From positions 64,001 through 128,000 of the forward strand of contig JAZQAZ010000020.1 in NCBI GenBank assembly GCA_045545475.1: 64,000 nucleotides of DNA, in the 5' to 3' direction. This DNA is from Clostridia bacterium (lineage in GTDB: Bacteria > Bacillota > Clostridia > CAKSNL01 > HGM11501). Both the position numbers and the translations under genes were made by a program. How positions within the stretch are numbered: position 1 is the first letter of the stretch; each line of letters begins with the position of its first letter. Positions 5,098 to 51,224 of this stretch are shown in pieces. The notes below the pieces were generated by a model. That model worked only from the letters and a program-made list of their open reading frames with translations. It had not been told where the DNA came from and did not search any database.

Positions 5098-5114
5098 GAA
5101 AGGAGAGATAAATT

Positions 5115-35140: not shown

Positions 35141-35284
35141 TATGCTTTGTTATAATAATATGAAAAACTTGTCCCGAAAATTACTATTAATACTTTACAA
35201 ATTTGTATTTTTGTGGTAAACTATGAGAGTATGCAGATTAAAATGAGAAAGTATGCGAACTTTTATACATAAAGGAGGCTCATT

Positions 35285-36280
35285 ATGAGCGAAGAAAGAA
35301 AACAAAGAGTATTTTCAGGCATTCAGCCATCAGGTGCGCTGGGCCTTGGCGGATATATCGGTGCGGTTAAAAACTGGCTTAAAATGCAGGAGGAATATGA
35401 TTGCTGTTTTTGCGTTGTGGACGAGCATTGCATAACGGTAAGGCAGGATCCTAAGGAACTTCGTGCAAGAAGTATGGAGTTTCTGGCACTTTACATTGCC
35501 TGCGGACTTGATCCGGAAAAAAGCCTTATTTATTTTCAGAGTCATGTGCCTCAGCATGCACAGCTTGCATGGGTGCTTAATTGCTATACCTACATGGGTG
35601 AGCTTTCCAGAATGACACAGTTTAAGGATAAATCGGCTAAGCACGCTGACAATATAAACGCAGGTCTTTTCACATATCCCGTTTTGATGGCGGCAGACAT
35701 TTTATTGTATCAGACAGACAAGGTGCCGGTAGGAATTGACCAGAAGCAGCATTTAGAGCTTGCACAGACAATTGCGGCAAGATTCAATGGAGTATACGGA
35801 GAGACATTTAAGGTTCCCGAGGCTGTTATTGCCAAGGTTGGAGCAAAGGTAATGAGTTTAGCTGATCCCACAAGCAAAATGAGTAAATCCGATCCCAAGG
35901 GAAACATAGGAATTCTTGATGCTCCTGAAGTCATTATGAAAAAGTTCAAGAGTGCAGTTACGGATTCGGATGCTAAAATTGAATATAAAGAAGGCAAGGA
36001 CGGAATCAATAACCTTCTTTCAATTTACTCCATTGCAACCGGAGAAAGCATTGAAGATGCAGTTAACCGTTTTTCAAATACCGGATACGGTGAGTTTAAG
36101 GTAAAGACAGCTGAAGCTGTAATTGAAATGCTTCGTCCCGTAAGAGAAAAATACGAAGACATTTCAAAAAATAAAGATTATATCGAAAGCGTTTATAAAA
36201 ACGGTGCGGAAATTGCCGGAAGAGTGGCAAGTAGAACTCTTGACAAAGTTTATAAAAAGATTGGCTTTGTTGCAAGATAG
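35285..36280 (+). CDS. trpS: Tryptophan--tRNA ligase
   Basis: FSGIQPSG, YPVLMAADILLY, VPVGIDQKQHLE, KMSKS. Confidence 0.96.
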   Translation: MSEERKQRVFSGIQPSGALGLGGYIGAVKNWLKMQEEYDCCFCVVDEHCITVRQDPKELRARSMEFLALYIACGLDPEKSLIYFQSHVPQHAQLAWVLNCYTYMGELSRMTQFKDKSAKHADNINAGLFTYPVLMAADILLYQTDKVPVGIDQKQHLELAQTIAARFNGVYGETFKVPEAVIAKVGAKVMSLADPTSKMSKSDPKGNIGILDAPEVIMKKFKSAVTDSDAKIEYKEGKDGINNLLSIYSIATGESIEDAVNRFSNTGYGEFKVKTAEAVIEMLRPVREKYEDISKNKDYIESVYKNGAEIAGRVASRTLDKVYKKIGFVAR

Positions 36281-36291
36281 GAGGTATCGCT

Positions 36292-37383
36292 TTGACAGAT
36301 ACAGTTAAAATAATACTTTCGTTTGTGGTTTCGTTTGTGGTGGCTTTTGCCACAACTCCTCTGGCAAAAAAATTTGCTGTTAAAATCGGAGCGATAGACG
36401 TTCCCAAGGAAGGTAGAAGAGTGCATAAAGAACCCACTCCGCTGATCGGAGGGCTTGCAATATTCCTTGGATTTCTGTCTTCACTTCTTGCTTTCGGAAA
36501 GATTGATGCAGAAATCGTAGGCATGTTGGCAGGTGCTGTTATAATGGTGGTTCTGGGAATATTTGACGATAAGTATAATCTTCCTGCTAAGTTTAAGTTT
36601 GTGATTCAGATTATTGCGGCGATAATCCCCGTAGCTTTGGGCGCGAAAATTGAAAGAATAATATTTCCGTTTTCTGAATACACCGGAATTACAGGTATTG
36701 AATTCGGATGGCTTTCTTATCCCATTACAATACTCTGGATTGTGGGACTTACCAATGCGGTAAATTTGATTGACGGACTTGACGGCCTGGCTGCCGGGGT
36801 TTCGGCCATTGCATCATTCTCTGTTTTCTGCGTTGCTCTTATGCAGGGCGAATACGGAATCGCAATTGTTACAGCGGCATTGGTTGGTTCGTGTTTTGGA
36901 TTTTTGCCATACAATTTCAATCCGGCATCTATCTTTATGGGGGATACAGGGTCAACGTTTTTAGGTTATGTAATGGCAGTAGTATCCGTTATGGGATTGT
37001 TTAAGATTCATGCCATAATTTCCTTTGCAGTTCCCTTTATCGCATTCGGAATTCCGATTTTCGATACCAGCTTTGCGATATTCAGAAGAATAAAAAATCA
37101 TCGTCCCATCATGTCGCCGGACAGGGAACATCTTCATCACAGACTTATAGACAGTGGTCTTAGTCAGAAGCAGGCAGTCTTGGCGATTTATGCAATATGT
37201 GTTGTACTTGGTGCCGTAGCGGTTATGTGTTTCAGAAATAAAATATGGGCACTTGCCATTGCAATGCTGGGCATTCTGGGTGCTTTGGTATTCCGCTATT
37301 GGGGAAGAGTCGGCAAGGACGGAAATGCCGAAAATAATGAAAATGCATCTGCAGAAAACGAAAATAAAAACACCGAAGAGTAA
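36292..37383 (+). CDS. Undecaprenyl-phosphate GlcNAc-1-phosphate transferase (TagO/WecA, MraY-like family)
   Basis: GIFDD, NAVNLIDGLDGLA, FMGDTGS, PDREHLHHRL. Confidence 0.92.
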   Translation: MTDTVKIILSFVVSFVVAFATTPLAKKFAVKIGAIDVPKEGRRVHKEPTPLIGGLAIFLGFLSSLLAFGKIDAEIVGMLAGAVIMVVLGIFDDKYNLPAKFKFVIQIIAAIIPVALGAKIERIIFPFSEYTGITGIEFGWLSYPITILWIVGLTNAVNLIDGLDGLAAGVSAIASFSVFCVALMQGEYGIAIVTAALVGSCFGFLPYNFNPASIFMGDTGSTFLGYVMAVVSVMGLFKIHAIISFAVPFIAFGIPIFDTSFAIFRRIKNHRPIMSPDREHLHHRLIDSGLSQKQAVLAIYAICVVLGAVAVMCFRNKIWALAIAMLGILGALVFRYWGRVGKDGNAENNENASAENENKNTEE

Positions 37384-37424
37384 TAAAAAAGCTGCCACGG
37401 CAGCTTTTTTCATAAGGAGATACT

Positions 37425-38981
37425 ATGGACAAGCTTCAAAGACTTATTAACAACTGTAATTATATAGTGTTTTTCGGAGGAGCCGGTGTCAGTACCGAAT
37501 CCGGTCTTAAGGATTTCAGGAGCAAGGACGGACTTTATAACGAAAAGAGCGATGTTCCCCCGGAAATGATTTTAAGCCACGGCTATTTTGAAAAGCACAC
37601 CGAAGAATTTTTTGACTTTTATAAAAATAAAATGATAGATCTTGATATACTGCCCAATAAGGCACATAAAAAGCTTGCCGAATTGGAAAAATCAGGAAAA
37701 CTTAAGGCTGTAATAACTCAGAATATTGACGGTCTTCATCAGGCTGCCGGAAGCGTAAATGTATTGGAGCTTCACGGAAGTGTCCACAGAAACTACTGCA
37801 CTGAGTGCAACAAGTTTTACGATGCAAAATTTATAAAAGAATCAAAAGGAGTTCCTGTCTGCTCCTGCGGTGGAATTATAAAACCTGATGTTGTGCTTTA
37901 TGATGAAGCATTATCGGATGATGTGATATCGAAGGCGGTAGCTCATATTTCTAAAGCAGACTTACTTATAATTGCGGGAACCAGCCTTATGGTTTATCCT
38001 GCGGCAGGATTGCTCAGGTATTTCCACGGACAGTACCTTGCACTTATAAATAAAGAAGAGACAAGCGTTGACAGGCTTGCAAATTATGTATCACATGAAA
38101 AAGTTGGGGAGGTTTTGGGAAGAATGGCAGTAGGAGTTACAATTAAAAATGAATTTATAGAAATGAAGTTCACTTCAAAGGGTGCACAGTGCGAGAGCCT
38201 TATGTTCAATGGAGAAGAACAGCTCTGGCAGGATAACGGAAGACTTATATGGGAAGACCATTCGCCTGTGCTTTTCCCCATATGCTCAAGTCTTAAGGAC
38301 GGCAAATACCATTATGACGGTAAATGGTATGAAATGCCTCAGCACGGCTTTTCCAAAGGGGCGATTTTCGAGGTTGAAGAGCTCGCAGGCGACAGAGTTG
38401 TATTCTGCCTTAAGGAAAATGATGAAACCTTGAAAATGTATCCATTCCTTTTCTCGTTCCGTGTGGAATATAAGCTATCGGGCAATAAGGTCATTACAAC
38501 CTACAGTGTTGAAAACAGGGATGAAAAAATTCTTCCTGCATCCTTCGGGAGCCATGAGGCTTACGCACTTCCCGACGGAATTGAAAATTATGAAATTGTG
38601 TTCCCTGAAGACGATTTTCTTATGCATCAGGTTATGGACGGAAGACTTGTTAACGGAGAGACAAAAAAGATTGAACTTGAAGGAAGGACTCTGCCACTTA
38701 CACGTGGCGTATTCGGAACGGATTCTTATGTAATAAAAGACCATAAATCAAGAAGTGTTACCTTACGAAGAAAGACGGGCGGCAGAGAAATTAAGATAGA
38801 TTTTCCCGGAATTGACTATCTTGTCCTCTGGCATAAGGAAGATGCCGATTATGTTTGCATAGAGCCATGGTGCAGTTTTATCGACCGTACAGATTCTGAC
38901 GGAGACATCACAAAGCGTGAGGGAATTATTCTTGTAGAACCCGGAAAAACAGTTGAAAAAACGCACACAATAACATTCTGA
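37425..38981 (+). CDS. Fusion: NAD-dependent protein deacylase (Sir2/CobB-like) + aldose 1-epimerase (LacX-like) domain
   Basis: N-half GAGVSTESG..DFR, TQNIDGLH, LHGS, CxxC/CxC Zn sites, GTSL; C-half LWQ..HSPVLFPI, QHGF, YPF, GSH, VCIEPW; single open frame. Confidence 0.85.
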   Translation: MDKLQRLINNCNYIVFFGGAGVSTESGLKDFRSKDGLYNEKSDVPPEMILSHGYFEKHTEEFFDFYKNKMIDLDILPNKAHKKLAELEKSGKLKAVITQNIDGLHQAAGSVNVLELHGSVHRNYCTECNKFYDAKFIKESKGVPVCSCGGIIKPDVVLYDEALSDDVISKAVAHISKADLLIIAGTSLMVYPAAGLLRYFHGQYLALINKEETSVDRLANYVSHEKVGEVLGRMAVGVTIKNEFIEMKFTSKGAQCESLMFNGEEQLWQDNGRLIWEDHSPVLFPICSSLKDGKYHYDGKWYEMPQHGFSKGAIFEVEELAGDRVVFCLKENDETLKMYPFLFSFRVEYKLSGNKVITTYSVENRDEKILPASFGSHEAYALPDGIENYEIVFPEDDFLMHQVMDGRLVNGETKKIELEGRTLPLTRGVFGTDSYVIKDHKSRSVTLRRKTGGREIKIDFPGIDYLVLWHKEDADYVCIEPWCSFIDRTDSDGDITKREGIILVEPGKTVEKTHTITF

Positions 38982-38986
38982 TTACG

Positions 38987-39027
38987 AAAAAATGCAGAGC
39001 GAAAAGTCACTTTCGCTCTGCATTTTT
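38987..39027 (+). terminator. Intrinsic terminator
   Basis: AAAAATGCAGAGCGAAA..TTTCGCTCTGCATTTTT. Confidence 0.85.
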
Positions 39028-39031
39028 ATTT

Positions 39032-39168
39032 TTATGCAAGAAAAATAAACAAAAATGTAAGATTATGCATAAAGAAATTGTTAAAATGCATAAATATTAA
39101 AAAATAATGTAAAAAAGCCTTGATTTTTCCTATGGCTGATGCTATAATTATGCAAAATGATAAAATGC
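39032..39168 (+). promoter_or_regulatory. arg operon promoter with probable ArgR (ARG-box-like) sites
   Basis: Several ATGCA(T/A)AA half-sites in an AT-rich region; TTGATT-17-TATAAT with extended TG at 39120-39148. Confidence 0.55.
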
Positions 39169-39169
39169 G

Positions 39170-40111
39170 GTGATATTTATGTGCGACAAAAAAACTAAAA
39201 TATTTATAGACGGCTCTGCAGGAACAACGGGCCTTCGTATATATGAAAGGCTCGGGGCGATGGAGGATATCGAATTAATCCGTTTGCCCGAGGAGGAAAG
39301 GAAAAGTCCCGAAGCGAGAAAAAGGGCTATTAACGAAAGTGATGTAACCTTTTTGTGTCTTCCTGACGATGCGGCAAGAGAGTCCGTTTCCTTGGCGGGA
39401 GATGATGTTATTATAATTGATACATCAACGGCCCACAGAACAGAAAGTGATTTTGCCTACGGTTTTCCGGAGCTTTCGGAAGAACACCGTGAAAAGATTA
39501 AAAACTCCAAAAGAATTGCGGTTCCGGGCTGTCATGCAGGAGGATTTATTGCACTTTTATATCCTTTAATAGAAAATGGATTTTTATCGCCCGACGCACA
39601 TCTTTCTTGCCATTCATTGACGGGATATTCAGGCGGCGGAAAGAAAATGATTGCAGAGTATGAAGCGGGAGAAAATCAGCTTCTTAAAGGTCCGAGACAG
39701 TACGGTCTTTCGCAGAATCATAAGCACCTTAAGGAAATGGTTAAAATAACAGGACTTTCCGTTGCTCCTGTGTTCTGCCCGATAGTCGGAGATTTTTACA
39801 GCGGTATGGAAGTGACGGTTCCTCTTTTCGCAAGCGATTTATTAAAGGGCGGAATAGAGGATATAAAAAATCTGTACAAAGAAAAGTACAATTCTGACAT
39901 TGTGAAATATGTTGAGGATGACGAGGAAGGCTTCTTGTCCTCTGTTAAATATTCAAATAAGGACTTTATGAGAATTTCCGTTTACGGAAACGAGGATAGA
40001 ATAATCCTTGTTGCAAGATATGATAATTTAGGTAAGGGTGCATCAGGTGCGGCAATTCAGTGTATGAATATAGCCATAGGAAAAGACGAAAAATGCTCAC
40101 TTGAGTTATAA
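39170..40111 (+). CDS. argC: N-acetyl-gamma-glutamyl-phosphate reductase (type 2)
   Basis: FIDGSAGTTGL, DTSTAHR, VPGC, TGYSGGGK, DNLGKGASGAAIQ. Confidence 0.94.
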   Translation: MIFMCDKKTKIFIDGSAGTTGLRIYERLGAMEDIELIRLPEEERKSPEARKRAINESDVTFLCLPDDAARESVSLAGDDVIIIDTSTAHRTESDFAYGFPELSEEHREKIKNSKRIAVPGCHAGGFIALLYPLIENGFLSPDAHLSCHSLTGYSGGGKKMIAEYEAGENQLLKGPRQYGLSQNHKHLKEMVKITGLSVAPVFCPIVGDFYSGMEVTVPLFASDLLKGGIEDIKNLYKEKYNSDIVKYVEDDEEGFLSSVKYSNKDFMRISVYGNEDRIILVARYDNLGKGASGAAIQCMNIAIGKDEKCSLEL

Positions 40112-40123
40112 GGAGAAGAAAAA

Positions 40124-41344
40124 ATGAGTGAAATTAAGTTAATTGAAGGCAGTGTTTGTGCGGCAAAGGGTTTTAAGGCGTCGGGCATTCATTGCGGAAT
40201 AAGAAAAAATAAAGTGAAAAAAGACCTTGCTTTAATCGTAAGTGAGAAAAGAGCAACTGCTGCGGCTGTTTATACCACCAATCTTGTAAAGGGTGCACCT
40301 TTAACGGTAACGAAAAAGCATTTGTCCGACGGTTATGCACAGGCGGTTATCTGTAACAGCGGAAACGCCAATACCTGTAACGCAGACGGTATCGAAGTTG
40401 CAGAAAAGATGAGTGCAATACTTGCCGAAGAGCTTAAGATAAATAAGGATGATATAATTGTTGCATCCACCGGCGTTATCGGTCAGAAGCTTGATATAAC
40501 TCCCATAAAGGAAGGAATCCCTTCTCTTTGTGCTAATCTTAAGTGCGACGGACTTGATGCGGCAGAAGGTATCATGACAACAGATACTGTTAAAAAGGAA
40601 GTTGCCGTAAGCTTCTGTATAGGCGGAGTAGAATGCAAAATGGGCGGTATCGCAAAGGGAAGCGGTATGATTCATCCCAATATGGCGACAATGCTTGTGT
40701 TTATCACAACAGATGCTGCAATAAGTGCTGAAATGCTTAAGAAGGCACTTTCCGGCGATATAACAGAAACCTTTAATATGTTAAGCATTGACGGTGATAC
40801 ATCCACAAACGATATGGTTGCGGTTATGGCAAACGGTATGGCAGGAAATAAGGAAATCACAGAAGATGGTGAAGACTTTGCTACCTTCTGTAAGGCACTT
40901 AATACTTTGACCGTACAGCTTTGCAGAATGATTGCAGGTGACGGTGAAGGTGCAACAAAGCTTCTTCAGTGTATCGTAACAGGTGCAAAGACCAAGGATG
41001 CTGCAAAGACTGCCGCAAAGAGCGTTATCTGCTCATCCCTCACAAAGGCGGCAATGTTCGGTGCAGATGCTAACTGGGGAAGAGTGCTTTGTGCTTTAGG
41101 CTACAGCGGTGCTGATATTGATGTGAATAAGGTTGATGTTCACTTTTCCTCTCCCAAGGGCAAAATCCTTGTTTGCAAGGATGGTGCGGGAGTTGACTTT
41201 TCCGAAGAAATTGCAAAGGAAATTCTTTTAGAGAAGGAAATCGACATTTTAGTTGACTTAAACGACGGAGAAGCCGATTCTGTTGCATGGGGATGCGACC
41301 TTACATACGATTACGTTAAAATAAACGGCGACTACAGAACCTGA
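40124..41344 (+). CDS. argJ: Ornithine acetyltransferase / N-acetylglutamate synthase
   Basis: NSGNANTC, KGSGMIHPNMATML, DGDTSTND, DGEGATK, WGCDLTYDYVKIN. Confidence 0.97.
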   Translation: MSEIKLIEGSVCAAKGFKASGIHCGIRKNKVKKDLALIVSEKRATAAAVYTTNLVKGAPLTVTKKHLSDGYAQAVICNSGNANTCNADGIEVAEKMSAILAEELKINKDDIIVASTGVIGQKLDITPIKEGIPSLCANLKCDGLDAAEGIMTTDTVKKEVAVSFCIGGVECKMGGIAKGSGMIHPNMATMLVFITTDAAISAEMLKKALSGDITETFNMLSIDGDTSTNDMVAVMANGMAGNKEITEDGEDFATFCKALNTLTVQLCRMIAGDGEGATKLLQCIVTGAKTKDAAKTAAKSVICSSLTKAAMFGADANWGRVLCALGYSGADIDVNKVDVHFSSPKGKILVCKDGAGVDFSEEIAKEILLEKEIDILVDLNDGEADSVAWGCDLTYDYVKINGDYRT

Positions 41345-41363
41345 TAAAGATAGGGGATTTTAT

Positions 41364-42245
41364 ATGGAACTTAAAGTAACAAACGCCCAGAGGGCTGAAA
41401 TATTAACTCAGGCACTTCCTTATATTCAGCAGTATTACGGCAAAATCGTTGTGGTTAAATACGGCGGAAACGCCATGATAAATGAAGAACTTAAAGAGCA
41501 GGTTATGGAAGACATCGTTCTTCTTCACTTAATCGGCGTAAAGGTTGTTGTGGTTCACGGCGGCGGCCCCGAAATAAGTGATATGCTTAAGAAAGTCGGA
41601 AAAGAATCCGTATTCTTGGACGGTCTTCGTGTTACTGATAAGGAAACCGTTGATATTGTGCAGATGATTCTGGCCGGGAAAATCAATAAAAATCTTGTAA
41701 GCCTTATTGAACAGAAGGGCGGCAAGGCTATGGGCATTTCCGGTATTGACGGTCATATGATCGAGGCAGAAATGAAGGACGAACGCTACGGCTATGTGGG
41801 AACAATAACAAAGGTTAATACAGAGCCTGTCTGCGATTTAATAGAAAAAGGCTATATTCCCATCGTTTCCACGGTAGGATGCGACATGGAGGGTAATACA
41901 TACAACATAAATGCAGATACAGCGGCGGCATTCATTGCAGGTGCCTTAAAGGCTGAGCGTCTTATTTCAATGACTGATATAACCGGCGTTCTCCGTGATA
42001 AGGACGATCCCGACTCTGTTATCCACTGCATGGATATAGCCGAGGCAAAAACCTTATTTGCCAACGGAATTATCTGCGGCGGAATGATTCCGAAGGTTGA
42101 ATGCTGTATCGAGGCAATCAATATGGGCGTTGAAAGAGTTACCATTCTTGACGGAAGAGTGCCCCATGCACTGCTTTTGGAAACTCTTACGGACGAAGGT
42201 GCGGGAACAATGGTTATCCGCGATAAAAGTGAGGCAGGATTATGA
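41364..42245 (+). CDS. argB: Acetylglutamate kinase
   Basis: VVKYGGNAM, VHGGGPEI, NINADTAA, GGMIPKV. Confidence 0.97.
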   Translation: MELKVTNAQRAEILTQALPYIQQYYGKIVVVKYGGNAMINEELKEQVMEDIVLLHLIGVKVVVVHGGGPEISDMLKKVGKESVFLDGLRVTDKETVDIVQMILAGKINKNLVSLIEQKGGKAMGISGIDGHMIEAEMKDERYGYVGTITKVNTEPVCDLIEKGYIPIVSTVGCDMEGNTYNINADTAAAFIAGALKAERLISMTDITGVLRDKDDPDSVIHCMDIAEAKTLFANGIICGGMIPKVECCIEAINMGVERVTILDGRVPHALLLETLTDEGAGTMVIRDKSEAGL

Positions 42246-43396
42246 GCATTATAAACGATGACAGTAAATACATTGCAAATACCTATGCACGTTTCCCTCT
42301 TGCAATAGTAAGGGGAAAGGGTGCTCTTTGCTATGACGAAGAGGGAAAAGAGTACATCGACCTCGGAAGCGGAATTGCTGTAAACGCCTTCGGATACTCC
42401 GATGACGAGTGGGTTAAGGCGGTAACGAGCCAGCTTTCAAAGGTTCAGCATACTTCAAATCTTTATTACACCGAGCCTTGTACACGCCTTGCTAAAATGC
42501 TTTGCGAAAAAACAGGTGCGAAAAAGGTGTTTTTCGGAAACTCCGGTGCCGAGGCAAATGAATGTGCCATAAAGGTTGCAAGAAAATATGCCGAGGATAA
42601 GGGCATCGAGGGTGCAAAAATCATAACCCTTAATAACAGCTTTCACGGAAGAACTTTAGCGACGCTTGCCGCAACAGGACAGGATGTTTTCCATAAGTCA
42701 TTTTTGCCCCTTCCCGACGGCTTCTGTCATATAGATGCGGGGGATGTTGATGCATTTAAGGCACTTGTCGAAAAGGAAAATATCGCTGCAATTATGATGG
42801 AAATGGTGCAGGGCGAAGGCGGAGTTATGCCTCTTTCGGAAGATTTCGTAAAAGAGGTTTGCCGCATCGCAAAGGAAAAGGACATCCTTGTAATTGTTGA
42901 TGAGGTGCAGACCGGTAACGGAAGATGCGGTGCACTTTATGCATATATGAATTACGGAATCAAGCCGGATGTTGTAACCACCGCAAAAGGACTTGGCGGC
43001 GGCCTTCCCATCGGATGCTGTATGATGTTTGAAAAAACGGAAAATGTGTTAAAGAGTGGCGATCACGGCTCAACCTTTGGCGGAAACCCCGTTGCATCTG
43101 CAGGAGCGGTGAGCATAATTGAAAGAATAGATGAAGCACTTTTATCCGAAGTAAAGGAAAAATCCGAAATGATTTTTTCATCTCTTAAGGGAGCAAAAGG
43201 CGTTAAGAGCGTTTCTGGTCAGGGACTTATGATTGGAATAGAAACCGAAAAGGATGCAGGCGAAGTAATTAAAGAATGTATGGGAAAAGGTGTTCTTGTA
43301 ATAAAGGCTAAAAACAAGGTAAGACTTCTTCCTCCGCTTAACATAAAGAAGGAAGAACTTAAAAAAGCACTTGATATAATTTTGTCCTGCCTTTAA
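42242..43396 (+). CDS. argD: Acetylornithine aminotransferase
   Basis: NSGAEANE, SFHGRT, DEVQTG, AKGLGGG, HGSTFGGNP; arg operon context. Confidence 0.94.
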   Translation: MSIINDDSKYIANTYARFPLAIVRGKGALCYDEEGKEYIDLGSGIAVNAFGYSDDEWVKAVTSQLSKVQHTSNLYYTEPCTRLAKMLCEKTGAKKVFFGNSGAEANECAIKVARKYAEDKGIEGAKIITLNNSFHGRTLATLAATGQDVFHKSFLPLPDGFCHIDAGDVDAFKALVEKENIAAIMMEMVQGEGGVMPLSEDFVKEVCRIAKEKDILVIVDEVQTGNGRCGALYAYMNYGIKPDVVTTAKGLGGGLPIGCCMMFEKTENVLKSGDHGSTFGGNPVASAGAVSIIERIDEALLSEVKEKSEMIFSSLKGAKGVKSVSGQGLMIGIETEKDAGEVIKECMGKGVLVIKAKNKVRLLPPLNIKKEELKKALDIILSCL

Positions 43397-43397
43397 T

Positions 43398-43446
43398 AAA
43401 AATAAAACAAGACATTTATTTAAATAAATGTCTTGTTTTTATTTTT
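43398..43446 (+). terminator. Terminator after arg operon
   Basis: AAAATAAAACAAGACATTTATT/AATAAATGTCTTGTTTTATTTT palindrome. Confidence 0.7.
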
Positions 43447-43495
43447 GAGTTGTGCTATAATATCAAGGATTGAGTTATAAAGTGAGGCAGTTTTT

Positions 43496-44965
43496 ATGAT
43501 GAGGAAAATTGGCTTTGACAACGAAAAATACATAAAGATGCAGTCTGAACACATCGGAAAGCGTGTTGAGGAGTTCGGCGACAAGCTTTACTTGGAGCTT
43601 GGCGGTAAGCTTTTTGATGACTATCACGCATCCCGAGTGCTTCCCGGTTTTCAGCCTGACAGTAAAATGAAGATGCTTATGCACTTATCGGACAAGCTTG
43701 AAATCGTCATCGTTATAAGTGCCATCGACATTGTGAAAAACAAGGTGAGAAGCGACTATAACATAACCTATGACCTTGATACAATCCGCCTTATTGAAGC
43801 ATTCAAAGGCCTCGGTCTTATGGTGGGAAGCGTTGTTATAACTCAGTATAGCTCTCAGGCAGCGGCAGACGTTTTTAAGAAAAGGCTTGAAAATATGGGA
43901 ATGAAGGTATTTCTTCACTATCCCATTGAAGGTTACCCATCAAATGTGGAACTGATTGTAAGTGACGAAGGCTACGGCAAAAACGATTATATCGAAACCG
44001 AGCGGCCCATCGTTGTCGTAACCGCACCGGGTCCCGGAAGCGGAAAAATGGCAACCTGCTTATCTCAGCTCTATCACGAAAACAAGAGGGGAGTGAAGGC
44101 GGGCTACGCCAAGTTTGAAACCTTCCCCATATGGAACCTTCCCTTAAAGCATCACGTAAATCTGGCGTATGAAGCTGCAACGGTGGACTTAAATGACGTC
44201 AACATGATTGACCCGTTCCATCTTGAAGCATACGGTGAAACAGCCGTAAATTATAACAGAGACATTGAAATTTTCCCTGTGCTTAATGCTATGTTTGAAA
44301 AGATAATGGGGACGAGCCCTTATAAGTCACCTACGGATATGGGCGTTAATATGGCGGGAAATTGCATAATCGACGACGAGGTTGTCCGTCAGGCATCAAA
44401 GGAAGAAATTGTAAGAAGATACTACCAGGTATTAAAAGATAAAACCAACGGAAAATGCGACATTGACGTGATAAGGAAAATGGAGCTTATCATGAAGCAG
44501 GCAGAGGTAAGTACCCTTGACCGTAAGGTTGCAGAGGCGGCACTTAAAAAAGCGGAAACTGCTAAGGGCCCCGTGTGTGCAATCCAGCTTCCCGACGGCA
44601 AGATAGTAACGGGAAAAACCTCCTCGCTTCTTGGTGCATCCAGTGCGGCACTCCTTAATGCACTTAAGGAAATAACGGGAATCGAGGATGATGTTCATCT
44701 TATATCACCGGAGGTTATTGAGCCTCTTCAGAACCTTAAAATAAATCATCTGGGAAGCAAAAACCCGAGAATACATATGGATGAAACATTGGTTGCTCTT
44801 TCAATCTGTGCGGCAAGTGATCCTTTAGCGAAAAAGGCACTCGAAGGCATAAGTGAGCTTAAGGGTGCGGAAGCACACTCAACCGTAATTTTATCACAGG
44901 TAGATGAAAATATGTTCAAAAAGCTTGGCATAAATTTAACATGCGAAGCAACATATAATAAATAA
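43496..44965 (+). CDS. DUF1846 (UPF0371) family protein
   Basis: KLYLELGGKLFDDYHASRVLPGF, TAPGPGSGKMATCLSQLYHE, SPTDMGVNM. Confidence 0.9.
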   Translation: MMRKIGFDNEKYIKMQSEHIGKRVEEFGDKLYLELGGKLFDDYHASRVLPGFQPDSKMKMLMHLSDKLEIVIVISAIDIVKNKVRSDYNITYDLDTIRLIEAFKGLGLMVGSVVITQYSSQAAADVFKKRLENMGMKVFLHYPIEGYPSNVELIVSDEGYGKNDYIETERPIVVVTAPGPGSGKMATCLSQLYHENKRGVKAGYAKFETFPIWNLPLKHHVNLAYEAATVDLNDVNMIDPFHLEAYGETAVNYNRDIEIFPVLNAMFEKIMGTSPYKSPTDMGVNMAGNCIIDDEVVRQASKEEIVRRYYQVLKDKTNGKCDIDVIRKMELIMKQAEVSTLDRKVAEAALKKAETAKGPVCAIQLPDGKIVTGKTSSLLGASSAALLNALKEITGIEDDVHLISPEVIEPLQNLKINHLGSKNPRIHMDETLVALSICAASDPLAKKALEGISELKGAEAHSTVILSQVDENMFKKLGINLTCEATYNK

Positions 44966-44971
44966 TTCTGT

Positions 44972-45005
44972 GGCAGCTGTAAACTTATGTTTACAGCTGC
45001 CTTTT
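44972..45005 (+). terminator. Intrinsic terminator upstream of recombinase gene
   Basis: GGCAGCTGTAAAC-ttat-GTTTACAGCTGCC-TTTT. Confidence 0.85.
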
Positions 45006-45098
45006 ATTTTGCGCTTGCAATTCTTTACAAAATATGTAATAATAAATCCGGATGCCGGACAGAATAATACAGCCTTAATAAAAATAAGGAGGTTTATT

Positions 45099-45929
45099 AT
45101 GGATTTTTTATCTGAATTCAGAGAAAGGCTTGTAAATGATGAGAAGGCAAAACTTACTGTGGAAAAATATGTAAGAGACTGCAGGGCGTTTTTAGCATGG
45201 GTTTCGGAAAGCGGGAGAACGCTGGATAAAGAGGCGGTGCTTTGCTATAAGGAGCTTATTTCAAAGAAACACAAAACTGCCGGAGCGAATTCTATACTGT
45301 CATCTCTGAATGCATATTTTTCATATATAGGGAGAGATGAGCTTAAGGTAAAAATATTAAAGAGACAAATGACTACCTTCAGAAACGAAGAGAAAGAACT
45401 TACGAGAGACGAATATGTAAGGCTGCTTAATGCCGCAAAGGAGCGTAAAAACAGAAAGCTTTATTATATTATGATGACTGTATGCCGCACAGGGATAAGA
45501 ATTTCGGAGCTTTCTTATATTACGGTGGAAGCGGCAAGAAAAAAGGAGGCGGTTATAGGAAATAAGGGGAAGATAAGAATTATCCTGCTTCCGGAAAAGC
45601 TTTGCAGAGAGCTTCTTTGTTATGCTTCTGAAGAAAAAATAAAAAGCGGCCCCCTGTTTGTAACAAAAAACGGGAATCCGCTTGACCGATCAAATATATG
45701 GAAAATGATGAAATCTCTTTGCGAAAGTGCGAATGTGGAAAGGGAAAAGGTTTTTCCGCATAATTTAAGGCATCTTTTTGCGGTAACCTTTTACAGTGTC
45801 CATAAAGATATTGTGCATCTGGCAGATATTTTAGGACATTCTACGGTTTCCACTACAAGAATTTATACACTGGAAAGCAGCGGGGCACATAGAAAACAGA
45901 TGGAACAACTAACAGGTCTTTTGATTTAA
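45099..45929 (+). CDS. Tyrosine-type site-specific recombinase (putative DNA invertase), 276 aa
   Basis: RBS AAGGAGG; catalytic set R (TGIRISEL), K (GNKGK), HxxR (HNLRH), H (LGHS), Y (TTRIY); N-terminal core-binding helices (TVEKYVRD). Confidence 0.93.
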   Translation: MDFLSEFRERLVNDEKAKLTVEKYVRDCRAFLAWVSESGRTLDKEAVLCYKELISKKHKTAGANSILSSLNAYFSYIGRDELKVKILKRQMTTFRNEEKELTRDEYVRLLNAAKERKNRKLYYIMMTVCRTGIRISELSYITVEAARKKEAVIGNKGKIRIILLPEKLCRELLCYASEEKIKSGPLFVTKNGNPLDRSNIWKMMKSLCESANVEREKVFPHNLRHLFAVTFYSVHKDIVHLADILGHSTVSTTRIYTLESSGAHRKQMEQLTGLLI

Positions 45930-45937
45930 AAATAAAA

Positions 45938-45965
45938 ATACCACATAATGCCGATTATGTGGTAA
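45938..45965. repeat. Left recombination site (IRL), dif-like 11-6-11 palindrome
   Basis: ATACCACATAA-TGCCGA-TTATGTGGTAA, starting 8 bp after the recombinase stop. Confidence 0.9.
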
Positions 45966-45984
45966 AAAGAATTATTACATAAAG

Positions 45985-46013
45985 ATTATAACATCAGGGA
46001 AGCGGTTTGTCAA
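45985..46013 (-). promoter_or_regulatory. Consensus SigA promoter inside invertible segment (currently facing away from downstream gene)
   Basis: Minus strand TTGACA (46013-46008), 17 bp, TATAAT (45990-45985) with extended TG. Confidence 0.88.
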
Positions 46014-46067
46014 TAGTTTTTTATCAATGGAAAAATAAAACTTTGCAAAAATCAGACATAATGAAGC

Positions 46068-46105
46068 GACCGATGAGGCAGAATTTTACATCGGTCTTTT
46101 TTTTG
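46068..46105 (+). terminator. Orientation-dependent intrinsic terminator inside invertible segment
   Basis: GACCGATG..CATCGGTC hairpin followed by a long T run on the plus strand only. Confidence 0.7.
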
Positions 46106-46166
46106 CGCACATTTTTTGGGAAAAATTTCTTTTTATAAAATCCGTATGGCAGATGAGAAGGAGAGA

Positions 46167-46194
46167 TTACCACATAATCGGCATTATGTGGTAG
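46167..46194. repeat. Right recombination site (IRR), inverted copy of IRL
   Basis: TTACCACATAA-TCGGCA-TTATGTGGTAG; its reverse complement matches IRL at 27/28 positions, including the asymmetric spacer. Confidence 0.9.
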
Positions 46195-46229
46195 AAAATT
46201 ATGAGTGGTTTTTTGAAAGGAAGGATTTT

Positions 46230-49200
46230 ATGAAAAAGGAGTTTTTGCACATTTTCAGCTTCGTTATGATTGCAATTTTCACATTCTCTTGTATCGGGGC
46301 TGTAAGTGCGGAAGAAACCTTCGATATTCCCGTAATTGAGGAAGTATCGGAGGAGGAGCTTGCAGAGGTTCTCCCGGAAGAGGCAGACGTGGAGATGATG
46401 GAGGAAGAAACGGAAATCGCTAAGGAAGAAGCATATTTTGAAATACGTGACGGAAAAGGAAATCATGTATGGTTTTTTGCTGATTTGAAGGAGGCACTTT
46501 CCTCAGATAAATTACAAAACGGCTATACACTTTTGATGCTGAAAGACTACACTTGGGATTATACTCTGGCAGATGTATCCAAGGGCGAAATCAGCGGAAT
46601 AGATATGCCGGGAAGTAAAACCTTCACATGGGACGGCGACGGTCATACCATTACCGACAAATTTGACAGAAGCAAGTATACGAGAATGACTCAAAAAGAC
46701 GGTGTATGGACTACGGAGTTGGGAGGCCATGATGACAGAGCTTCCTACAATCTTGGTAGTGCAAAAGTAACTGCGAAAAACATAACATTTTCGGGAAATC
46801 CGCAAAATACGATTAATAAACAGGGACATACAAATGGCTGTTTTAATATCGGTAACGGTCAGCTTACATTGAAGGATGTTAAATTTATAAACTATTTCGG
46901 ATGGAACGGCAGCGTTTGTTGGATGCAGGGAACAGGCAAGCTGGTTATGGTTGAAAATGTAACTGCCGAAAACTGTTCAGTGCAATACCACGGTCTTATA
47001 GGGATAAATAAAGGAACTGCTGAAATAAGCGGATTCACTATGAAAAACTGTAAAGGAACTGCTGCTATCGGTGTAGGTACAGTTGCTTCCGAGGCAAGCC
47101 TTAACATAGAAAACAGCACTATAACAAATTGTTCAACCGGAATACTTGTAGGAGCTTCTGGTGAGTCTGGTAATCAGGGTGTTGCTAATATTGGAGACAA
47201 TGTGACTATATCCGGTTGTTCATATGGTATATCTGTTCATACTGGTGCTACAGTCAATGTGACAGGCTTAAACGTTAATATTAACAGAAATACCGAAAGT
47301 GGTATAGTTCTTTACAACAAAAAGGAAGCTGAAATTGGCTCAACATTAAATGCAACTGGTGGAATGAATATAACAGAAAACCAGAACGCCGGTATTGATA
47401 TTGCTGAAAACTCAATAGTTATATTAAATGGCAATGTCAATGTTACAGAAAATACAAATGCTGATATCAGAATGGAAGTAGCTGACGCACTTGAGGTTGG
47501 CGAAGGCTTTACTGGAACGGCAGGAGTTAGTGTTGTTTCAAACGATATCTGGTTCGGACATCTGGCAGAAGGGGTAGAAACACTTAATGGAACAATATAC
47601 GAGGGAATTGATCCCAACGGACATAAAGGTGCTGTATATGAAAGCCTGATTGGTTCGGGAACGGTAACCCATAACGGAAAAACATATTCTCTTAAAAAGC
47701 CTGTAACAAGAGACCTTGACGATAATGCTCTTGTAATTGGCTACAAAATGTATAAAAAAACAGGCTCCGATGCGGCGGGATACAAGAGAGTCGGAGCGGA
47801 TGCTGCCATAGGTACAAGTATGCTCAGCGGTGGAGAAATTTATCTTCTTTCGGATATAACTTTGGCAGGAGATATCAAGTGCGATAAGGATAGCTCTACT
47901 ATTGACGACCACTTTGACTTTACCGGAAGCACAGCTGTTGCAAATATATACGGAAATGGTCACACAATAAGCATTCATGATGATTATACAAAGGGGCATT
48001 TTTTCGCAGTTTACCAGGATGCGACCATGAATTTCCACGACGTTATTTATAACGGAAAAGGAAGGACGACTTTTGCCTATATACACTGCTCGGAAGACCC
48101 TAAGGGTGGCGGTGCAATAAGTGCAGACAATGTTATATATTATAATGGTAAGCATACTACCTATGCCGGCGGTATTTATAACTCAGGAGAAGCCTATGCC
48201 GGTACAATAAATGTAAAAGACTGTAAGTTTATAGCATGCAAAGGTGCAAACGGCGGTGCATTATATTCTACAGGACTCGGCGTGCTCAATGTATCTGATA
48301 CAGACTTTATAGATTGTGCGGCTACAAGTAACGGAGGTGCAGTTTATCTCACCAATAATCATACAATGACTATGTCTGGAGAAATCAATGCTACAGGCAA
48401 TAAGCGTGGAAGCAAGGAAAACAATGTGTACCTTTCAAGCGGAGCGAAAATAAACATAGCAGGAAACATAACAGGTGAAATAGGTCTTACTATGGCACAG
48501 TCAGGTGCAACCTTCGGAACTGTTGCAGATACCAATATCACAGGTCTTGATTGCTTCTATGCAGATGGTGCAGAGATAAGATATTATACAGCAATCGGCA
48601 CCGAACCTGTCATTGAAAAGGTTAAAGGTACCTTGTTCCCGGAAACTGTGGGAACAGGTGAACTTAACGGTGAGGTTGTTATCGATATGCAGGATGTTGC
48701 ATCAAGAAAAGAGGGAAGAGAAAAGGATGCAGTTTTGCACTGGCCCTGGATTGTAGTAAAAGAAGACGAAACCAGATACGGATATGTAAGCCTTAACTCG
48801 GCGTATTCAAACCTTGCGGCAACTTCATTCATATATGCTCAGAAGGACATAACAATTCAGCATTTGTGGGATAAAGCTATAACAACTGAAACAACAAGCG
48901 AGGAAAGAAAAGAAATCTATGCACACGTAGAATTTCCTCTTCCGGGTTCTGGAGATAGGCTTAACCATATAAATACGGGAGCAAATGTAAACATCGACGG
49001 AAACGGACACGTGATAACGGTAGATAAATCTGATAGTAACTATATGTTTGTTATATACGGCAATAACAAGAGCTTGCAACTTAAAAACTTTATTTATAAC
49101 GCCGATAAGCCTATGGCACATATACATAAAGACCAGGCAAACGGAACAGAAGCGATTATCATAAATAACAGTTATTTCAACAGTCCGAACAGAAATGTTA

Positions 49201-50063
49201 TAGGTGCATTTAAGGGAGGAACGGTCACTGTCAATGACAGCACAGTGATTGGAACTTTCGATATAGGATCAGGAGCTAAGCTTATACTTTCTGATACGGC
49301 AGTTTCAAAACCGAGCGGAAAGAGTGTGGTTCTTACCGGTGTTGCACCTGTTGAAGCAAGCGGCGAAACAGCGGCAGTTCCTGCGGTAATTACAAAAGTA
49401 ACGGTAAAGGGTGATACGACGATTTCAGCAGGTAATGGCCTTTATGCAAATAATAAGTATGTCGAAGTTATAATAGACGAAAGCTTTACCGGTTCAATTG
49501 AGGTAAATGAGGCGAACGGCTGTATAGATAATGTTAAAGCAGGCGAAGGCTTTACTTCCTTAGAGTCTGTAAAGAGCATTACTAAAGCAGGTTCAAACGG
49601 CGAAACATTTGCATATTATGACGAAGCAAATGAAAAGTTTGCGTGGACTATGGCACCTGAGCTTACACGTACGACAGATTCGGGTAAGTATAGTGACGGG
49701 TACGGAACAATAAGATTTCTGACAACATTTAAAACTGTTGACTCTGCTGCCGTTGCAAGTTATGGAACCTATGCGGTGGGAGAAAGCAGCTTTGTTGAGA
49801 ATGCAGAGTGGGAAGAAACAGAGTTCATAAAATTTGACAAGACACCGGAAGCTGATAAGGTATATTATGTTGATGTTATAAAAATTCCCGCGGAGCATTT
49901 TGATACAAAAATTAAGGCACTCAGCTTTGTAAAGATTAAAGGAATAAAAACCCCCATTTATTACGATTTCAATTTGGCAAGTGTAAATAAAAATGACACA
50001 GAAACAGGCGAGGGAACACTGAAGAACTTAGGCAAGCCAACATATGCCGAAGCAGAAGCATGA
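46230..50063 (+). CDS. Large secreted/surface protein with right-handed beta-helix (pectin-lyase-like / Pmp-like GGA repeats), 1277 aa
   Basis: ATG at 46230 after GAAAGGAAGGA; signal peptide MKKEF..VSA; acidic linker; NC..GI and GG(A/I) beta-helix repeats; three G(D/N)GH(T/V)I-containing modules. Confidence 0.8.
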   Translation: MKKEFLHIFSFVMIAIFTFSCIGAVSAEETFDIPVIEEVSEEELAEVLPEEADVEMMEEETEIAKEEAYFEIRDGKGNHVWFFADLKEALSSDKLQNGYTLLMLKDYTWDYTLADVSKGEISGIDMPGSKTFTWDGDGHTITDKFDRSKYTRMTQKDGVWTTELGGHDDRASYNLGSAKVTAKNITFSGNPQNTINKQGHTNGCFNIGNGQLTLKDVKFINYFGWNGSVCWMQGTGKLVMVENVTAENCSVQYHGLIGINKGTAEISGFTMKNCKGTAAIGVGTVASEASLNIENSTITNCSTGILVGASGESGNQGVANIGDNVTISGCSYGISVHTGATVNVTGLNVNINRNTESGIVLYNKKEAEIGSTLNATGGMNITENQNAGIDIAENSIVILNGNVNVTENTNADIRMEVADALEVGEGFTGTAGVSVVSNDIWFGHLAEGVETLNGTIYEGIDPNGHKGAVYESLIGSGTVTHNGKTYSLKKPVTRDLDDNALVIGYKMYKKTGSDAAGYKRVGADAAIGTSMLSGGEIYLLSDITLAGDIKCDKDSSTIDDHFDFTGSTAVANIYGNGHTISIHDDYTKGHFFAVYQDATMNFHDVIYNGKGRTTFAYIHCSEDPKGGGAISADNVIYYNGKHTTYAGGIYNSGEAYAGTINVKDCKFIACKGANGGALYSTGLGVLNVSDTDFIDCAATSNGGAVYLTNNHTMTMSGEINATGNKRGSKENNVYLSSGAKINIAGNITGEIGLTMAQSGATFGTVADTNITGLDCFYADGAEIRYYTAIGTEPVIEKVKGTLFPETVGTGELNGEVVIDMQDVASRKEGREKDAVLHWPWIVVKEDETRYGYVSLNSAYSNLAATSFIYAQKDITIQHLWDKAITTETTSEERKEIYAHVEFPLPGSGDRLNHINTGANVNIDGNGHVITVDKSDSNYMFVIYGNNKSLQLKNFIYNADKPMAHIHKDQANGTEAIIINNSYFNSPNRNVIGAFKGGTVTVNDSTVIGTFDIGSGAKLILSDTAVSKPSGKSVVLTGVAPVEASGETAAVPAVITKVTVKGDTTISAGNGLYANNKYVEVIIDESFTGSIEVNEANGCIDNVKAGEGFTSLESVKSITKAGSNGETFAYYDEANEKFAWTMAPELTRTTDSGKYSDGYGTIRFLTTFKTVDSAAVASYGTYAVGESSFVENAEWEETEFIKFDKTPEADKVYYVDVIKIPAEHFDTKIKALSFVKIKGIKTPIYYDFNLASVNKNDTETGEGTLKNLGKPTYAEAEA

Positions 50064-50072
50064 GGAGGGATA

Positions 50073-50285
50073 ATGATGAACGATAAAATGAATATAACGC
50101 AAGAAAATCCCTTTTCCGAGAACGAGAAAGTAAACAAGGAAAAAAAGAAAAAGGTATATGAAAGCCCCGAAATTACGGTGATAGAAATCGAAACAAAGGA
50201 TGTCATAAACGCCAGCACTTTAATCGGATTCGATGCAGGTGAAAACCTTCTGGGTTCCGGTCAGATAGAGTTTGACTTGAAATAA
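50073..50285 (+). CDS. Small peptide with KKxYxxPEI..DVIxAS leader-like motif
   Basis: Strong RBS GAGGAGG overlapping the upstream stop; motif KKKVYESPEITVIEIETKDVINAS. Confidence 0.7.
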   Translation: MMNDKMNITQENPFSENEKVNKEKKKKVYESPEITVIEIETKDVINASTLIGFDAGENLLGSGQIEFDLK

Positions 50286-50393
50286 TTAATAATCGCGGAA
50301 ATCGGACCGCATAAAATATGTCTGAAATGCAGAAACAGTGCAACAGCTTGTTGTAAATACAACTGCTTTCTGCTTTTTAGAGAACCACTTCTA

Positions 50394-50429
50394 TGCGAAA
50401 AGACGGCTAGCACCGTCTTTTTGCATTTT
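50394..50429 (+). terminator. Intrinsic terminator closing the surface-protein/peptide unit
   Basis: TGCGAAAAGACGG-ctagca-CCGTCTTTTTGCA-TTTT. Confidence 0.75.
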
Positions 50430-50470
50430 AAATTTTTGCAGCCGGCAATCTGAACTCATCCGCCTTTTGG

Positions 50471-50551
50471 TGTCATTCTGAGTCCGAAGGACGAAGAATC
50501 CCGCGCAAAAAAGATTCTTCACTCCGCCTGACGGCTCTGCTCAGAATGACA
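50471..50551. repeat. Inverted pair of TGTCATTCTGAG..GAAGAATC palindromic elements
   Basis: TGTCATTCTGAGTCCGAAGGACGAAGAATC (50471-50500; 28/30 identical to the reverse complement of 34090-34119) and AGATTCTTC..CTCAGAATGACA (50512-50551). Confidence 0.78.
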
Positions 50552-50690
50552 GGTGGGAATATAAATAAAACAGAAAAGTTTTAAGAAAATAACAATTTCC
50601 CCTTGTTTTAATTTCTTTTTAGTGATATAATAATTAATTAATAATATAATCGGAGAAATTGTGTCTTTTTGTGAAAGGAAAGAGCAAATT

Positions 50691-51224
50691 ATGAAGATAA
50701 AAGTTGATAAACTTACATATAAAGAGTTTACTGAATATGCGGATTCCACCGTGGCAAAGCCTATAAAAATGACTCTGGCGTTTTTCATCGGCGTGGCAAT
50801 AATTTTAATCATTATCGCAATGAGCAAGCCTTCATTTGAAGGTGCTGTTACACCACTTTTCTGGTGCGTGGGAATTCTTGCGTTCCTTCTTGTGGCATCA
50901 AATGCAAGCGTAAATACTGCATTTAAAAAATCGGGGCTAGCATCAACTAATTGCAGTTACACCTTTATGGAAGACGGTATGAAAATCGCCATGGGGAAAT
51001 TAAAGGGCGACCTTGAGTGGAAATATGTCAAATATGTAAAAGAAACCAAAAATCTCTGGATTATGAGAGTGCCCAACAGCCAGTTTATAATCCCTAAAAG
51101 ATGTATGAACGAAGAAGAGTGGGAAAGTCTTATAGATACATATATTCCCGAAGATAAAATAAAGCGGATGAAGTATAAGAGAAGCAACCCTGAAAGGACG
51201 AAGGACGATGACAGTGAAGACTGA
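50691..51224 (+). CDS. YcxB-like membrane protein
   Basis: Two TM helices followed by F.EDG..W..V.ETK..FIIPKR. Confidence 0.72.
   Translation: MKIKVDKLTYKEFTEYADSTVAKPIKMTLAFFIGVAIILIIIAMSKPSFEGAVTPLFWCVGILAFLLVASNASVNTAFKKSGLASTNCSYTFMEDGMKIAMGKLKGDLEWKYVKYVKETKNLWIMRVPNSQFIIPKRCMNEEEWESLIDTYIPEDKIKRMKYKRSNPERTKDDDSED

Follow-up and report, generated by a model that had tools for sequence, protein, structure and literature searches.

A probable promoter inverton with an adjacent Xer-like recombinase gene and a variable beta-helix protein gene in gut Clostridia

Organization of the locus

We analyzed a 64-kb stretch of contig JAZQAZ010000020.1 (assembly GCA_045545475.1), referred to here as the window, from the 2.74-Mb genome of an uncultured Clostridia bacterium (G000); all coordinates are positions in the window. 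The subject of this work is a candidate phase-variation module within it, in which a tyrosine recombinase gene is followed by two short inverted sites that enclose a promoter, by the gene of a large secreted protein (hereafter the cargo gene), and by a small open reading frame (ORF). Much of the comparison below involves a second genome of the same genus, G002. The main features are:

45099-45929, plus strand: Xer-like tyrosine recombinase gene, presumed invertase, 276 aa (PF00589 at 2.2e-24)
45939-45965, no strand: left (recombinase-proximal) crossover site, 11-nt palindromic arms around GCCG (inverted-repeat and pattern scans)
45966-46166, no strand: putative invertible core, 201 nt (reverse-complemented in G002 at 99% column identity between the flanks)
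45985-46013, minus strand: predicted core promoter, TTGACA-17-TGnTATAAT, pointing to the recombinase gene, i.e., OFF (12/12 sigma-70 match with TG)
46167-46193, no strand: right crossover site, exact reverse complement of the left one, spacer CGGC (inverted-repeat and pattern scans)
46230-50063, plus strand: cargo gene, predicted 1277-aa secreted protein with signal peptide, right-handed beta-helix, hypervariable passenger and conserved FN3-like C-terminal domain (translation, models, comparison with G002)
50073-50285, plus strand: small ORF, 70 aa, member of a genus-wide peptide family (94% identical in G002)

A preliminary description of this DNA, made from the sequence alone, had reported an intact tyrosine recombinase at 45099-45929, and profile searches agreed with it. 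The protein belongs to the catalytic-domain family Phage_integrase (PF00589), which it matched over residues 100-257 with 86.6 bits against a cut-off of 27.1, and six residues (R134, K158, H221, R224, H247 and Y256) were invariant in all 24 aligned family members. Judging from the surrounding motifs, these columns probably fill the catalytic roles R-K-H-R-H-Y, in agreement with the R-K-H-R-H/W-Y signature. The N-terminal Phage_int_SAM_1 domain scored 20.1 bits for a Pfam cut-off of 22.3, and the family profile aligned with XerA (4a8e) over positions 4-277. The closest solved proteins were XerA 4a8e (2.8e-37), XerA 5hxy and XerD 1a0p. The best NCBIfam models were likewise those of XerA, XerD and XerC, each far under its cut-off (XerA_Arch 133.2 vs 220, XerD 120.9 vs 329.6, XerC 101.3 vs 335), and the FimB/FimE-type models PRK09870 and PRK09871 did not reach theirs (33.7 vs 221 and 23.9 vs 222). 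Since all Xer and FimB/FimE scores fell below the cut-offs, the enzyme is, by its profile matches, an Xer-like tyrosine recombinase outside both the Xer equivalogs and the Fim invertases. The window genome has a single copy of it, together with two distant paralogues at 31-34% identity.

The left site begins nine bases past the recombinase stop codon. The two sites form a 27-nt inverted repeat (45939-45965 and 46167-46193) that is 100% complementary, with 201 nt between the arms and 255 nt from site to site. The paired inverted sites had earlier been given as a 28-bp repeat with 27 of 28 positions matching, which is also correct; the 28-nt version has one mismatch, at the outer base. The left site is the palindrome TACCACATAAT-GCCG-ATTATGTGGTA, and the right site has the same arms around CGGC. 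Since the 11-nt arms are palindromic, the direction of each site is set by the four central bases alone. The site pattern matched twice in the window, against 0.00 expected from 100 shuffles, and had no further match in the whole genome.

The core promoter is the sole 12/12 match among the 19 promoter-like matches found in 44800-50700. It reads from 46013 to 45985 and thus faces away from the cargo gene, as had been described. Likewise, the consensus scan gave no promoter-like match on the plus strand between the right site and the ATG at 46230, where the preliminary description had also seen none. This ATG, 35 nt past the 28-nt right site, is the start codon with a ribosome-binding site, and both the 1277-aa ORF and the small peptide attributed to the module were found, the latter at 50073-50285. 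The locus therefore has the layout of a promoter-carrying inverton, as the inverted repeats enclose a promoter able to drive the neighbouring gene only after inversion, an arrangement (ON) that is found in G002.

Both orientations occur among related genomes

G002 is a different species representative from the window genome, and its recombinase is 97% identical to that of the window. In a blastn comparison of the two loci, the left flank aligned on the plus strand (97.5% identity), the 255 nt from site to site on the minus strand (98%), and the right flank again on the plus strand (97.3%). A direct alignment loses similarity precisely between the sites; after reverse complementation, identity is 99% over the 255 columns. 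The order in G002 is TTGACA-17-TATAAT, approximately 25 nt, right site, ribosome-binding site and ATG, which is the ON arrangement. Since the G002 core is reverse-complemented, with its promoter facing the cargo gene, the window corresponds to the OFF state. The earlier proposal of an ON/OFF invertible promoter captured OFF is thus borne out by a flipped core between the same sites, and by relatives in both orientations.

We identified 43 pairs of orthologous loci with left flanks at least 85% identical. The cores had the same orientation in 26 pairs, were flipped in 8 and were unrelated in 9. In four flipped pairs (L003/L006, L051/L052, L056/L058 and L105/L116) the flanks were at least 97% identical, and some flipped loci have flanks 99.75% identical. 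Both orientations therefore exist in nature, in the window and G002 as well as in seven more flipped orthologous pairs.

Evidence at the population level came from assembled contigs of public sequencing runs, where region 44500-47500 was compared with four gut-metagenome runs from four studies. In run X1, one contig ends at 45965, another begins at 46167, and a separate 255-nt contig corresponds exactly to 45939-46193. Repeats of 27 nt are too short to interrupt an assembly graph with k=31 if just one continuation is present; by this reasoning, which falls short of proof, the breaks at both sites hint at a mixed population carrying the two orientations. A joint in X1 that skips 201 nt (45963 to 46165, shorter side 29 nt) is uninterpretable, the sites being near-palindromic.

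The recombinase and the switch (45099-46386) are 97-98% identical to those of G002, while the whole alignment over 35076-45965 (10.9 kb, mostly upstream housekeeping genes) averages 88.6%. Possible reasons are that the two species exchanged the module recently or that it is more strongly constrained.

A family of similar switches in gut Clostridia

Relatives of the recombinase, 44-60% identical to it, occurred in 20 of the 61 related genomes, a single genome having as many as 10. Metagenome contigs yielded 40 further loci and no relative above 60% identity, although records near the window genome were possibly excluded from that collection. A species-representative collection gave at least 600 matching stretches, of which the best 80 were all in Clostridia metagenome-assembled genomes from human, ruminant, rabbit and other guts. 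With a family profile, we found a copy in 72 of 301 evenly drawn genomes of the class, distributed over 48 of the 178 genera sampled.

The site analysis covered 120 loci of relatives in which 600 nt or more follow the recombinase stop codon. In 116 of them, a CATAAT-N4-ATTATG site lay no farther than 130 nt from this codon, and 109 had a partner site with the reverse-complement centre; two more loci had such a pair approximately 475 nt away. The preliminary description had proposed to look for paired CATAA-N6-TTATG inverted sites beside recombinase homologues, and this recurrence is what we observed. The site-to-site length ranged from 224 to 509 nt, mostly 245-290. There were 49 different 4-nt centres, none of them palindromic, for about 7 expected if centres were random, an expectation that treats the loci as independent, which they are not. 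From this adjacency and co-conservation, the recombinase is the presumed catalyst of the inversion.

Promoter content was assessed in 113 switch cores, the window itself counted; at least three records are doubled across the two collections (L007=L075, L028=L123, L029=L132). A sigma-70 match of at least 11/12 was present in 88 of the 113 cores, compared to none of 113 equal-length segments of the recombinase genes and 2 of 107 downstream segments. The -10 element mostly ends 27-50 nt from the site that the promoter faces. Among these 88 loci, the promoter faces the recombinase in 63 and the cargo in 23, with two ties; that is, the assemblies show the OFF state about three times as often.

The genes placed under these switches appear to be diverse. 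We surveyed the first ORF after the right site, as chosen by a script; 79 of 104 loci were scanned, with the window, G002 and near-duplicates excluded. No Pfam family was assigned in 27 of the 79. Domains of cell-surface type (SLH, dockerin, cohesin, BspA-type LRR, Flg_new, GLUG, collagen, fn3) were found in 12, TetR_N regulators in 11, SPFH with zinc ribbons in 5, polysaccharide genes (Wzz, Wzy_C, acyltransferase) in 3, and ResIII helicases and YpsA/SLOG in 2 each; single cases included TIR, GGDEF, TadZ-like and subtilase.

Some loci depart from the two-site layout. Eight of them (L007, L008, L009, L010, L016, L019, L021 and L044) have three sites, with the additional copy placed 33-44 nt (in L016, 118 nt) from one of the ends. 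L007 and L009 have this doublet distally, L008 and L010 at the recombinase end, which is what inversion by the outer pair of a segment holding the third site would produce. Where two sites are in direct orientation, deletion of the bases between them could also occur. One genome of the genus, G008, carries 10 recombinase-plus-switch modules (L012, L031 and L184-L191) whose recombinases are 51-97% identical to each other. In seven of these modules the sites are almost alike (centre ATAC/GTAT, 265-269 nt from arm to arm). The modules could cross-react or undergo large inversions with one another.

Terminator-like elements in the switch

Two elements of the switch resemble intrinsic terminators:

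45929-45964, minus strand: left site, hairpin and U-run, terminator-like for the OFF transcript (terminator scan and RNA fold)
46068-46104, plus strand: hairpin GACCGATG...CATCGGTC followed by T8 within the core, antiparallel to the promoter (script scan and fold)

Read as minus-strand RNA, the left site gives an 11-bp hairpin and then UUUUUAUUUUU (-12.4 kcal/mol, z -4.5), located approximately 15 nt downstream of the expected start of the OFF transcript. Across the family, an A-run (at least 7 of 10 bases) precedes the left site in 67 of 113 loci, and a T-run of the same stringency follows the right site in 6 of 113. In a strict terminator scan of the cores, 21 loci had a terminator running against the promoter, 9 had one running with it, and 2 had terminators on both strands. 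An Rfam scan of 44800-50800 returned no matches. The self-complementary stem is usually longer in the proximal site: its total length there is most often 24, 18 or 22 nt, whereas 18 nt is the commonest value at the distal site. This would suit a proximal site that also serves as a terminator stem.

Proposed mechanism and alternative explanations

Taken together, we consider that the window element is very probably a working phase-variation switch, an inverton. The Xer-like recombinase (45099-45929) would bind the two dif-like sites, each with 11-nt palindromic arms around a 4-nt asymmetric centre and, as the centres are inverted relative to each other, would invert the 201 nt between them. At one of its ends the core would have a single strong promoter directed outward, and antiparallel to it a terminator. 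In the OFF state, seen in the window, the promoter would fire at the recombinase gene and its transcript would meet the hairpin and U-run of the left site after approximately 40 nt, while read-through from the recombinase gene would be halted by the internal hairpin and T8. With the promoter facing away and the read-through stopped, the 1277-aa gene would be left without a promoter. In the ON state, the arrangement seen in G002, the promoter would stand approximately 25 nt before the right site, with no U-run after the site, and the beta-helix gene and the small ORF would be transcribed as one operon.

Several observations weigh against this interpretation. A 1677-nt contig of run X3 spans 44654-46330 and a contig of run X5 spans 45704-46411, both bridging the switch solely in the window orientation, and no contig with a flipped junction was among those listed for the metagenome runs over 44500-47500. 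The genomes G000 and G002 being different species representatives, their difference could be one old, fixed inversion, and the contigs give no more than a hint of mixing within a population at this locus. The family counts overstate independence, because many of the 113 loci are kin and some records are doubled. As for the insulation, promoter and terminator activity are roles that we infer from consensus matches and predicted folds: the internal hairpin of the core (-12.2 kcal/mol, z just -1.5) folds no better than many shuffles, and the strict scan found no terminator in 81 of the 113 cores.

One alternative is that the element is a fossil, in which a single old inversion separates G000 from G002, no useful flipping rate is left and the cargo gene is permanently silent here. 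The uniform orientation of the X3 and X5 contigs would fit such a fossil, as would the recombinase-facing state of 63 of the 88 family assemblies with a strong promoter. We nevertheless find it very unlikely, since the recombinase ORF is intact with its six catalytic residues kept, the sites are perfect in 27 of 27 positions, and the core is 98-99% identical across orientations in a neighbourhood where the 10.9-kb alignment averages 88.6%. Furthermore, loci with 99.75% identical flanks have flipped, and the X1 contigs break at both sites. Even less credible, to the point of being almost negligible, is an absence of any recombination, with the palindromes acting as hairpins of terminators or of repetitive extragenic palindromic (REP) type and the flipped assemblies arising from errors at the inverted repeat. 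Each site can indeed form a hairpin, and the left one scores as a minus-strand terminator, but the site occurs just twice in the genome, lies beside a recombinase of one family in 116 of 120 loci, and has a partner whose spacer is always the reverse complement and never palindromic. A 27-nt repeat is also below the usual assembly k-mers, so that reads should fix the orientation, and eight flipped pairs come from independent assemblies. For the same reasons of uniqueness and constant association with the recombinase, a REP-like element or a set of terminators only was rejected as a description of the sites.

A different kind of alternative would add to the control of the cargo gene by the inverton rather than replace it. 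The OFF-orientation promoter may make an antisense or short RNA that lowers the expression of the recombinase and so locks the switch OFF. The promoter does aim at the 3' end of the recombinase gene, and the recombinase-facing state predominates (63 vs 23); however, the left site and its U-run should end the transcript before it reaches that gene, and we regard this second output as unlikely.

Comparison with known systems

The preliminary description had not recognised the recombinase and its sites as a characterised system. This holds only in that the family has been catalogued and not studied biochemically; the architecture itself is very common in gut Clostridia and very probably already catalogued in a 2025 PhaseFinderDC survey of the hCom2 community (PMC11892184). 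Of the 33 invertons placed there in inverton group 139, 32 come from Clostridia. A tyrosine recombinase gene accompanies nearly every one, and no other group is tied as strongly to a neighbouring tyrosine recombinase group, in this case invertase group 35. The examples described include a 257-bp inverton with 26-nt repeats in Clostridium sp. D5 and one of 255 bp in Intestinimonas butyriciproducens, and the read ratios of the example invertons move between orientations over culture passages (PMC11892184). The window element resembles this group, as portrayed in the survey, in its Clostridia host, in having a tyrosine recombinase gene within 5 kb (here 9 nt from the site) and in length (here 255 bp, with 27-nt repeats). 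On the basis of this geometry, host class and adjacent enzyme, it is most likely a member of inverton group 139 and invertase group 35. The words CATAAT, ATTATG, palindrom and spacer are absent from the main text of the survey, and we saw no mention there of the arm-centre-arm structure of the sites or of the terminators. The cargo gene of the window, in turn, is absent from the hCom2 community. The literature that we found on this recombinase-switch family consists of surveys and of work on RecV of C. difficile, with no biochemical study.

The closest classical parallels are fimS of E. coli and cwpV of C. difficile, both as outlined in PMC2784873. With fimS and FimB/FimE the window element shares a short promoter-bearing invertible segment, inverted repeats, an adjoining tyrosine recombinase and ON/OFF control of a surface structure. 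It differs in having one recombinase instead of two, in the Xer-like nature of that enzyme, and in its 26-nt dif-like palindromic sites with a 4-nt asymmetric centre. The cwpV switch is described as 195 bp between imperfect 21-bp repeats, upstream of the gene of a large cell-surface protein. Both systems are from Clostridia, with a segment of approximately 200 bp, a strain-variable surface protein, a tyrosine recombinase and an intrinsic terminator in their logic. According to the same account (PMC2784873), however, the cwpV promoter is outside the switch and the OFF state results from a terminator in the leader, whereas here the promoter is inside; and recV is remote from cwpV and serves several switches, whereas here the gene is adjacent and there is one site pair in the genome.

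The Xer/dif systems (XerA, XerC/D) are similar in that they provide the closest structures and in their two arms of approximately 11 nt around a short centre. Xer recombinases act at a single dif site per replicon, in the resolution of chromosome dimers. Here, inverted pairs of sites accompany the gene, a genome may carry as many as 10 copies of it with a site pair for each, and the outcome would be inversion, not resolution; an Xer/dif system was rejected for the window element because its sites are paired and inverted.

In summary of this comparison, the kind of element is already known, and the interest of this locus lies in its annotation and details, notably the flip relative to the sister genome, the inserted module, the hypervariable passenger and the accompanying peptide. 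For an uncultured lineage of gut Clostridia, it offers a clear and well-supported case of phase variation, with both states represented by sister genomes. The fixed layout of the family (recombinase, terminator-like site, outward promoter, partner site with matching centre) should allow its members to be readily recognised in metagenomic data and tried out with ease as orthogonal genetic switches.

The module as an insertion between housekeeping genes

The module lies between a DUF1846 gene upstream and YcxB-like and MiaB-like genes downstream. In G004 and G007, DUF1846 is directly followed by YcxB and MiaB, which represents the empty site. Homology to G004 ends at 44965 and resumes at 50596, in the promoter region of YcxB. 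The remaining features of the insertion are:

44966-50595, plus strand: whole inserted module, with recombinase, switch, cargo, small ORF and its own terminators (empty site in G004)
44972-45001: terminator-like site upstream of the recombinase gene (terminator scan)
45015-45043, plus strand: candidate weak promoter, possibly that of the recombinase gene, TTGCAA-17-AATAAT with TG (9/12 in the consensus scan)
50393-50436, plus strand: terminator-like hairpin and T-run closing the operon, with the terminator-like site at 50393-50426 (terminator scan)

Since both outer terminator-like elements lie inside 44966-50595, the 5.6-kb module brings them with it. The idea of a self-contained cassette, set between housekeeping genes and bounded by terminators, thus agrees with the empty sites of G004 and G007 and with the hairpins at both ends. 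The empty site shows that switch and cargo move as one unit.

The cargo protein

The cargo protein begins with a signal-peptide-like segment, MKKEFLHIFSFVMIAIFTFSCIGAVSA (read by eye). Its database copy, P0004, has 1305 aa; the public gene call must therefore start upstream of the ATG at 46230 and run through the right crossover site (~46146-50063). We found no Pfam, NCBIfam or PDB sequence match for the protein, and a match to blaCAM (E 0.0027) was dismissed as noise. In a search of 5.8 billion proteins, with 7997 candidates scored, two relatives were found, one of which has the length and identity of the G002 orthologue; the atlas matches of the cargo protein were unnamed clusters.

The preliminary description had called the protein a beta-helix, and structural modelling supports this for residues ~120-490, with a low-confidence model. 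A single-sequence model of residues 52-691 had a mean predicted local distance difference test score (pLDDT) of 47.4, with one stretch at 60-87; model residues 1-121 and 377-640 are unreliable. Model residues 68-437 matched right-handed beta-helix proteins with Z 20-25 over approximately 280-320 residues, among them the Vag8 passenger, the PfbA adhesin, phage tailspikes and polysaccharide lyases. The modelled fold does not separate an adhesin from an enzyme and, because no known wall anchor was found, the protein is presumed rather than established to be at the surface. The C-terminal domain was modelled as an FN3-like sandwich (mean pLDDT 75), with generic FN3 matches at Z 7-8.

Compared with its G002 counterpart, the protein is identical over residues 1-52, roughly 30-40% identical with many gaps over ~60-1085, and mostly identical from ~1095 to the end. 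The nucleotide sequence of 46387-49533 shows no similarity to G002 that could be detected, in contrast to the adjoining stretches of 10.9 kb (88.6% identity) and 5.7 kb (93.7%). The ends of the cargo gene, the switch and the small ORF are 94-99% identical to G002 despite the diverged passenger. The divergence of 46387-49533 looks like allele replacement or strong diversifying selection. A surface antigen or receptor that hosts or phages put under pressure would be expected to show this combination of a passenger at ~30-40% identity with gene ends and a switch at 94-99%.

The small peptide

Searches with the small ORF gave 26 matches in 10 of the 61 genomes, all of the same genus. The family consensus is KKxYEAPxLxVTEIETxDVIxxSG...LGxGxIEIDLN, with lengths of 45-70 aa; the window peptide has no Pfam or NCBIfam family, and its atlas scores were below 0.9. 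In at least 11 loci, among them two on contigs C16 and C37 of the window genome, the peptide gene directly follows, within a few bases, a large ORF ending in the conserved C-terminal domain. The large secreted protein and the small peptide thus appear, from gene order, to be a conserved gene pair (the window, C16, C37 and loci L165-L176), seen in one genus among the 61 genomes. A complex prediction for the C-terminal domain and the peptide scored 0.50, against 0.02 for the best of three controls; the runs agreed in at least 67% of contacts and the pLDDT of the partner was at least 47. Calibration on 80 solved complexes and 110 mismatched pairs had 58 of the former and 2 of the latter reaching the mark; just 7 of the 80, but both mismatches, did so at scores of 0.60 or lower, so the prediction lends weak support to an interaction.

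These observations suggest a broader picture, which we offer tentatively and consider possible though less likely than its opposite: a self-insulating, portable plug-in switch, in which the proximal site doubles as a terminator, the core holds an antiparallel promoter and terminator, and the 4-nt centres give direction and perhaps an address, allowing up to 10 modules per genome. Such a switch would have arrived here as a 5.6-kb insertion with a possibly new two-gene surface module, whose FN3-like domain would bind the KKxYEAP...IEIDLN peptide. The window genome also contains two copies of the gene pair that have no switch, in contigs C16 (~5101-5966) and C37 (~27985-28616).

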